A stretch of DNA of 5,452 bases from a virus (Duplodnaviria; Heunggongvirae; Uroviricota; Caudoviricetes): IMG/VR virus record IMGVR_UViG_2778261005_000009, one strand, 5' to 3'. A program made the translations under genes and the position numbers. The notes beneath the pieces are model-generated. The model saw only the letters and a program-made list of their open reading frames with translations. It was not told the DNA's origin and ran no database searches. Below, piece by piece: positions 3,578 through 4,008 of the stretch (its first letter is position 1; each line of letters opens with the position of its first letter).

Positions 3578-3612
3578 AAACGGTTTGCGGGAAAAGGATA
3601 GTTAAGTAGAAT
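3574..3612 (+). promoter_or_regulatory. Candidate promoter for the hok mRNA
   Basis: Candidate -10 elements GATAGT (3597-3602) or TAGAAT (3607-3612), with a weak -35 (TTGCGG 3585-3590 for the latter). Placement is constrained by the 5'-3' complementarity, which requires the transcript to start at or before about 3613. No strong consensus match. Confidence 0.25.
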
Positions 3613-3630
3613 TGCTGCGGGTGCTTGAGG
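3613..3630 (+). promoter_or_regulatory. 5' element of hok mRNA complementary to its 3' end (tac/fbi-like long-range pairing, 5' partner)
   Basis: tgctgcgggtgcttgagg (3613-3630) pairs antiparallel with cctcaacgcacccgcg (3993-4008): 6 bp, a one-nucleotide bulge (C3999), then 10 bp including one G-U. Confidence 0.45.
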
Positions 3631-3664
3631 CTATCTGCCTCGGGCATGAACACCAACGGCAGAT

Positions 3665-3739
3665 AGAGAAAAGCCCCAGTTAACATTACGCGTCCTGCAA
3701 GACGCCTAACATTAATCTGAGGCTCAATCTATGAACGGC
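3665..3739 (-). ncRNA. Putative Sok-like antisense RNA (type I antitoxin), about 75 nt
   Basis: Minus-strand sigma70-like promoter (below) would start transcription near + coordinate 3739. The transcript is antisense to the upstream in-frame ATG (3731) and its SD (GAGG 3719-3722). It ends in a terminator-like structure on the minus strand: outer stem ccucag/cugggg (3717-3722 with 3674-3679, one G-U), inner stem gcguc/gacgc (3690-3694 with 3701-3705), then U-tract cuuuucucu (+ 3665-3673). Ends are approximate. Confidence 0.4.
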
Positions 3740-3745
3740 AAATCT

Positions 3746-3774
3746 AGGTTAGCCTCTTACGTGCCGAAAGGCAA
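3746..3774 (-). promoter_or_regulatory. Candidate promoter of the Sok-like antisense RNA
   Basis: On the minus strand: -35 TTGCCT (+ coordinates 3774..3769), 17-nt spacer, -10 TAACCT (3751..3746). The -35 overlaps the hok SD region on the opposite strand. Confidence 0.35.
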
Positions 3775-3787
3775 GGAGAAGCAGGCT

Positions 3788-3943
3788 ATGAAGCAGCAAA
3801 AGGCGATGTTAATCGCCCTGATCGTCATCTGTTTAACCGTCATAGTGACGGCACTGGTAACGAGGAAAGACCTCTGCGAGGTGCGAATCCGAACCGGTCA
3901 GACGGAGGTCGCTGTCTTCGTAGACTACGAATCTGAGAAGTAA
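3788..3943 (+). CDS. hok: Hok/Gef-family type I toxin (51 aa membrane peptide)
   Basis: ATG 3788 preceded by AGGAG (3774-3778) at 9-nt spacing; stop TAA 3941-3943. Product MKQQKAMLIALIVICLTVIVTALVTRKDLCEVRIRTGQTEVAVFVDYESEK aligns along its length with plasmid R1 Hok ([52 protein letters not shown]) and is very close to chromosomal HokD/RelF as recalled. The track ORF 3731..3943 is an in-frame upstream extension (ATG 3731), possibly a mok-like leader reading frame. Confidence 0.9.
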   Translation: MKQQKAMLIALIVICLTVIVTALVTRKDLCEVRIRTGQTEVAVFVDYESEK

Positions 3944-3992
3944 GAGACCAGGCGGGGGAGTAATCTCCCGCCACCTCTGATGTGTCAGGCAT

Positions 3993-4008
3993 CCTCAACG
4001 CACCCGCG
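3993..4008 (+). promoter_or_regulatory. 3' element of hok mRNA complementary to its 5' end (fbi-like, 3' partner)
   Basis: cctcaacgcacccgcg (3993-4008) is the antiparallel partner of 3613-3630. It implies a transcript of about 400 nt, similar to the known R1 hok mRNA length. A further imperfect hairpin lies at 3951-3972 just after the hok stop. Confidence 0.45.

Follow-up and report, generated by a model that had tools for sequence, protein, structure and literature searches.

The 5,452-nt stretch of viral DNA analysed here, referred to below as the window, carries a hok toxin gene preceded by an upstream start codon in the gene's own reading frame. In plasmid R1 the upstream frame, mok, whose translation is required for that of hok (PMC4147584, citing Thisted & Gerdes 1992), lies in another register. 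The question raised by the window locus, and put forward in a preliminary description of the sequence, is whether the leader is coupled to hok translation in a different way here, or whether two Hok isoforms of 70 and 51 amino acids are made.

The arrangement on which the question rests was confirmed in the sequence. A mok Shine-Dalgarno (SD) sequence, GAGG, is found at 3719-3722 (+ strand) and is followed after 8 nt by the ATG at 3731. This ATG opens a frame of 70 codons (3731-3943, + strand) which is in register with the hok ATG at 3788, 57 nt downstream, and the two genes have a common stop codon at 3941-3943, as is characteristic of the in-frame class of mok genes (mokC/mokW type). The remaining two frames are closed by a TGA at 3732-3734 and a TAG at 3745-3747. 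Also the claim that no other start with an SD is available held up: ATG 3731 is the sole one in the region from the predicted 5' end of the mRNA (3619) to the hok start, the five other ATG, GTG or TTG codons all lack an SD, and the three of these five that are out of frame give ORFs of just 6-20 codons.

The hok gene itself (3788-3943, + strand) has its own SD (AGGAG, 3774-3778, + strand) 9 nt before the ATG and encodes a protein of 51 aa, MKQQKAMLIALIVICLTVIVTALVTRKDLCEVRIRTGQTEVAVFVDYESEK, which belongs to the small Hok/Gef membrane toxins of about 50 aa. The Pfam model PF01848 (HOK_GEF) matches residues 25-66 of the 70-aa frame with 79.8 bits (cut-off 22), and the 51-aa protein is 100% identical to HokW of the Shiga toxin phage 933W. 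In the closest genome RefSeq annotates the 51-aa gene alone (WP_000813258.1). An exact copy of the window's 70-aa sequence occurs on 351 public contigs, where its source name is Hok family toxin, while a different 70-aa protein from the same 90%-identity cluster carries the name "regulatory protein". Annotation pipelines thus give this gene variously as 51 aa or 70 aa, and pointing this out has some value for annotation.

With high confidence, the locus can be regarded as a standard hok/sok toxin-antitoxin system of a Shiga-toxin-type prophage, in which ATG 3731 is the leader start of the mokW type. The sok family of Rfam (RF01794), a model of the hok leader, gives a + strand hit at 3619-3793 with 105.6 bits, the gathering score being 59. 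The 503 nt around the hok locus are 99.6% identical to several STEC chromosomes and display 97.2% nucleotide identity to Stx phages 933W, VT2-Sakai (Sp5) and others. This 503-nt region was found in 4,710 of 5,426 complete Escherichia coli genomes, with a median of two and a maximum of ten copies per genome. The setting is the early region of a lambdoid prophage, comprising replication genes, DUF551, hok, a YgiW/YdeI-like OB-fold protein, DUF968, RusA and the Q antiterminator, and the hok/sok locus is flanked by the DUF551 and YgiW/YdeI-like genes. Elsewhere in the window, two overlapping ORFs (2281-2592 and 2312-2617, + strand) lie where the closest E. coli genome has a CDS flagged as frameshifted.

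Two annotated systems have the same geometry as the window, and the description of the upstream frame as mok-like was correct. In K-12 mokC (b0018)/hokC/sokC (gef), mok is likewise in frame, with GAGG-N8-ATG at -57 relative to the hok ATG and a common stop. HokC is 80% identical to the window Hok, Mok has 69 aa and not 70, and the locus is chromosomal and adjoins IS186; the K-12 copy is regarded as inactivated. The mokW/hokW/sokW locus of 933W and Sp5 (AF125520.1; PMC8621323) is closer still, with an identical Hok and 97.2% identity over the 503 nt. The 213-nt mokW has the same extent as the 70-codon frame of the window and ends at a stop common to the 156-nt hokW, sokW is antisense over the mok start, the DUF551 and YgiW/YdeI-like genes are in the same places, and the positions of all these elements correspond to those of the window. 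A difference is seen in mok codons 1-5, which read MLNTC in 933W and MNGKS in the window, codons 2-5 being changed. Since the upstream frame has already been annotated as mokW, deposited with 933W (AF125520.1), and as mokC in the K-12 reference annotation, the in-frame layout of the window is an ordinary one and is no new feature.

Several properties of this system have been studied in Sp5, the locus of which matches the window at 97.2%, the same as 933W. HokW is toxic, also when it is expressed alone from pBAD24, and is counteracted by sokW RNA; the repression depends partly on RNase III and Hfq, and C-terminally tagged HokW (HokW-3FLAG) was detected in the inner membrane after prophage induction and loss of sokW RNA (PMC8621323). 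In that report mok is named in the introduction alone, and its text and legends contain no second protein species.

The antisense RNA Sok (sokW allele) can be placed on the - strand at 3669-3739 by transferring the coordinates of the sokW misc_RNA of 933W. The single-stranded 5' tail of 9 nt predicted for it complements the ATG of mok together with its codons 2 and 3, the hairpin arm following the tail is complementary to the mok SD, and a long hairpin and a U tract come after these. The predicted fold has a free energy of -34.1 kcal/mol (z = -5.8). The RF01794 match, the correspondence in position with sokW and this fold of Sok point to a conserved structured hok leader whose mok initiation region is overlapped by an antisense RNA encoded in cis, Sok itself being predicted here. 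The complementarity covers the initiation region of mok, not that of hok. A putative Sok promoter was recognized by eye at 3746-3774 (- strand; TTGCCT at 3774-3769, a spacer of 17 nt, TAACCT at 3751-3746 and the start at 3739), and in sokW the -10 element and the transcription start have been mapped and mutated (PMC8621323). For the hok/mok mRNA a weak promoter is tentatively suggested by a putative -10 element (TAGAAT, 3607-3612, + strand), also identified by eye, 6 nt before the predicted 5' end. A scan for consensus promoters and terminators gave nothing at threshold, and both the hok/mok and the Sok promoters fell below it.

The differences between the window and 933W are unevenly distributed: eight of the 14 mismatches over the 503 nt are clustered in a 15-nt hypervariable patch (3730-3744, + strand), which includes mok codons 2-5 and corresponds to the 5' tail of Sok plus a few bases immediately upstream of where Sok starts. 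Across 27 distinct prophage leaders with a Hok at least 92% identical to that of the window, the patch takes many forms and its flanks are nearly constant. The window and 933W probably carry different Sok specificity alleles, and the patch is probably a determinant of Sok-hok specificity that permits multiple copies in one genome (up to 10 in E. coli).

The mRNA structures described here are all predictions. Position 1 of the RF01794 model falls at 3619, the predicted 5' end of the hok mRNA, where a tac-like element (GGGUGCUUGAGG, 3619-3630, + strand) pairs with an fbi-like 3' element (3993-4005, + strand) in the minimum-free-energy fold of 3619-4006. Such pairing of the 5' and 3' ends locks full-length hok mRNAs. 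The mok SD, invariant in 45/45 aligned leaders, is paired with 3674-3677 in the predicted folds. A ucb-like box (UAGCCUCUUAC, 3750-3760, + strand), which lies inside mok codons 7-10, pairs with the region of the hok SD when the truncated mRNA is folded; in the full-length fold its partners are the spacer and the first base (A) of the hok AUG. A G+C-rich hairpin after the hok stop (3951-3973, + strand) is present in every predicted fold and, by analogy with R1, probably marks where the processed and translatable mRNA ends. Compared with shuffled sequence, the local hairpin that covers the ribosome-binding site of hok has only a modest gain in stability (z = -1.8). When RNAalifold was applied to the 74-nt leader alone, just three pairs were obtained, that is nearly no consensus structure, and following this run the named helices were tested directly on 45 aligned leaders. 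For the helix that joins the ucb box to the hok SD (alignment columns 44-49 with 65-69), 95% of cells are paired. Enclosed by it is a small hairpin (mok codons 11-16) that shows GC to AU and GC to UA compensation, with 23 double-sided changed cells where 7.3 are expected, and none of 500 shuffles reached 23.

Compared with these in-frame systems, the classical locus of plasmids R1 and R100 (parB) differs in register. Statements made here on R1 mok, as well as on gef/orf69, rest on reviews and database annotation. The R1/R100 leader has the same order of elements as the window (SD-ATG, variable patch, UAGCCUCUUAC box, hairpin, AAGGAGAAG and hok ATG), the same antisense target, pairing of the 5' and 3' ends and a Mok of 70 codons. 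In the R100 leader (NC_002134; R100/R1-type, 100% identical there), which more than 2,600 plasmids carry at 99% identity or higher, GAGG-N7-ATG is found with the ATG at -58. The frame is accordingly +1 and gives an unrelated product of 70 aa (MSSPHQDSLLPRFAQGEEGHETTT...GLRIR) that ends 4 nt before the hok stop; the Hok proteins of R1/R100 and of the window are only about 45% identical. The R100/R1-type product is recognized by NCBIfam PRK13720 ("modulator of post-segregation killing protein", 151.6 bits) and by Pfam DUF5431 (140 bits). The statement in the preliminary description that R1 mok has 70 codons and is read in a different frame from hok was borne out by this leader, and the opposite reading, with R1 mok in frame, was rejected, given the -58 ATG and a +1 product that constitutes the curated Mok family. 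With its ATG at -57, in frame, the window therefore differs from R1 in register; its 70-aa product matches Hok models alone and does not fall into the R1-type Mok family, the +1 frame being closed by the TGA at 3732. K-12 mokB/hokB/sokB, which belongs to the same family and has the same leader layout, also has its mok ATG at -58 (+1 frame), with 55 codons ending 40 nt before the hokB stop. As a side observation, the Pfam family DUF5431, labelled "family of unknown function", corresponds to the R1-type out-of-frame Mok, as seen with the sequence of one surveyed locus (L065), which also matches PRK13720.

How variable the register is within the family was followed in two sets of loci, in each of which the homologous mok start was located as GAGG-N5-11-start codon. 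The first set comprised 80 loci on contigs sampled as one genome per species, and 76 of these had a recognisable mok start. The second consisted of 80 prophage loci, of which 76, with a Hok at least 92% identical to that of the window, were analysed. Among the 76 loci of the first set the in-frame register (offset -57, or -60 in two loci) was found in 47, with an N-extended Hok as the product and 6-10 nt between SD and ATG. The +1 register (offset -58) occurred in 22, the products having 24-70 codons and being unrelated to Hok, and the +2 register (offset -56 or -59) in seven, with products of 19-20 codons, the mok TGA of which is located inside the ATGA of hok. The prophage set gave 58 loci in frame, 12 in +1, three in +2 and three degenerate ones, and the arrangement seen in the window, GAGG-N8-ATG at -57, was shared by 58/76 of these prophage loci and by most of the 47 in-frame loci of the first set, a recurrence that is not due to chance. 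When distinct leaders were pooled (n = 78), 50 were in frame, 20 in +1 and eight in +2.

Some individual loci deserve mention. The seven +2 loci of the first set are L022, L023, L026, L047, L070, L078 and L080, in all of which the mok TGA overlaps the hok start as ATGA, and one meets this geometry even where HokC matches the K-12 protein at 100% identity. The degenerate prophage leaders include one in which the mok ATG is replaced by ACG and two in which the sequence upstream of the patch has been replaced. A mok start is absent from L012 and L017; judged by the C-terminal sequence that they share with HokD, these two are probably hokD/relF. Enterobacterial hok loci were also encountered on contigs that bear the labels Veillonella, Acinetobacter, Xanthomonas, Ferruginibacter, Streptomyces and Oscillibacter (L008, L020, L028, L065, L066, L067), labels which probably reflect contamination or mis-binning and not true hosts.

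Registers shift by single-base insertions and deletions, mostly in the variable patch of 12-14 nt after the mok ATG and in some cases in the spacer before hok. Two loci with 100% identical Hok proteins illustrate this: in IncFII plasmid pMTY1886 (L004, 401-556) mok is in frame at -57, and in L065 (616-771) it is out of frame at -58. Between L004 and the R100/R1-type leader (NC_002134, 47221-47551) there is a 1-nt length change in the variable patch. As for what does not change, GAGG-N6-10-ATG was found at the homologous position in the 76 loci, which come from Escherichia, Photorhabdus, Kluyvera, Sodalis, Pantoea and plasmids. In all of these, as in the window, an SD-bearing mok frame starts upstream of hok and crosses its initiation region; the frame set by mok is open through to the hok ATG in 76/76 loci, a count that overstates the number of independent observations because the surveyed loci are phylogenetically related, and the other two frames are open in 22/76 and 16/76. 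The Hok of L004 is 100% identical to the sequence used here for R1 Hok.

These observations bear on an alternative in which ATG 3731 is fortuitous and unused, the SD of hok sufficing for translation of the toxin gene independently of mok. The hok SD (AGGAG, at 9 nt) is indeed stronger than the GAGG of mok, and RefSeq gave only the 51-aa gene in the closest genome. Such a reading is nevertheless very improbable in view of an SD-ATG conserved in 76 loci with a frame that is always open to hok, the complementarity of Sok to the mok and not to the hok initiation region, and the need of R1 hok for mok translation (PMC4147584).

What kind of constraint acts on the leader can be estimated from its polymorphism. 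Over the 18 leader codons, variable sites are distributed over the three codon positions as 13:13:14 (Photorhabdus group) and 15:11:17 (R1-like group), with no excess at third positions. In the hok coding region of the same sequences the corresponding figures are 10:8:28 and 13:11:39, and an excess at third positions is present. The "RLASY..KGKEK" of the extension, which looks conserved, was considered as a conserved peptide and rejected, as the same nucleotides read "DSLLP..QGEEG" in +1 loci. The lack of third-position bias, the nucleotides shared between registers and the conservation of the helices indicate therefore that the leader is constrained as RNA and for being translated, not for its peptide. 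As far as can be judged by comparing sequences, the mok register appears to be incidental to the coupling, and what appears to be selected is an SD-ATG at this position together with a frame open to the hok start.

The same data weigh on the possibility that toxicity resides in the 70-aa product, either as the toxin proper or as a further functional isoform, under direct Sok control, with initiation at 3788 being secondary or dispensable. The 70-aa frame includes the entire Hok along with its Pfam match, the 19-aa extension is hydrophilic and has a net positive charge, so that an N-in topology would be compatible with it by the positive-inside rule, and the in-frame register is the commonest (50/78 distinct leaders). 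On balance we consider this reading rather unlikely. The extension has no codon-position bias, and its conserved residues are encoded by nucleotides that are conserved also in +1 loci, where they specify other amino acids. Across the aligned leaders, those with in-frame mok included, the hok SD varies little or not at all; the hok ATG is present in every surveyed in-frame locus by construction, the survey having been anchored on it. In addition, loci with a near-identical Hok may have their mok in the +1 frame, or a 19-codon mok in the +2 frame, neither of which is capable of giving a long isoform, and HokW produced alone is toxic (PMC8621323). The 70-aa N-extended Hok appears instead to be a logical by-product of the in-frame layout, as would follow from the nucleotide sequence by itself.

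The other suggestion, that leader and hok are coupled differently in this locus, is unsupported by the comparison. All three registers interchange among loci with near-identical or identical Hok, the mok frame open to hok is the sole invariant, and the constraint on the leader is at the RNA level. A distinct mode of coupling for the in-frame register, for example 70S scanning or re-initiation instead of unfolding of structure, is improbable. In its favour is the existence of three registers, among them the +2 type with its ATGA stop-start overlap typical of termination-reinitiation, so that more than one physical route is open to the hok family. Against its application here, termination-reinitiation is impossible in this locus because an in-frame mok does not stop near the start of hok; this applies equally to the R1-type +1 frames (50-70 codons), and the two types are thus under the same constraint. 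Alleles one leader base apart moreover switch register, favouring one register-tolerant mechanism.

For the window locus we infer that ATG 3731 is used, that coupling occurs by unfolding of the hok site and that some 70-aa protein is synthesized. In the repressed state Sok, transcribed from the opposite strand (3739 to 3669), would pair with the SD and start codon of mok and thereby block mok initiation. Upon loss of Sok and trimming of the mRNA 3' end, ribosomes would initiate at 3731. They would then cross the structured hok ribosome-binding region, which corresponds to mok codons 8-19, and unfold it, allowing initiation at 3788. Because the mok start is located 57 nt upstream and in frame, those mok ribosomes that are not replaced at 3788 would continue and give the 70-aa N-extended Hok.

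In the literature looked at, neither a systematic account of mok register lability nor a test of the long isoform was found. Mok was explicitly left out of a 2026 Hok survey because it is difficult to call, and hok and mok are unmentioned in the text of a preprint on small proteins mapped with Onc112 and retapamulin (10.1101/511675). The register lability and the hypervariable Sok-recognition patch can be seen as modestly interesting side observations; the in-frame start itself carries little weight as a discovery. For the hok family as a whole, it may tentatively be proposed, at less than even confidence, that the mok register is freely interchangeable. Two membrane-active isoforms, one of 70 and one of 51 aa, would accordingly be made when an in-frame locus such as that of the window is de-repressed, the long one being directly controlled by Sok. 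The comparative pattern, with a mok frame open in 76/76 loci, three registers and no constraint on the peptide, supports the view that it is the act of translating mok, and not the Mok peptide, that controls hok.
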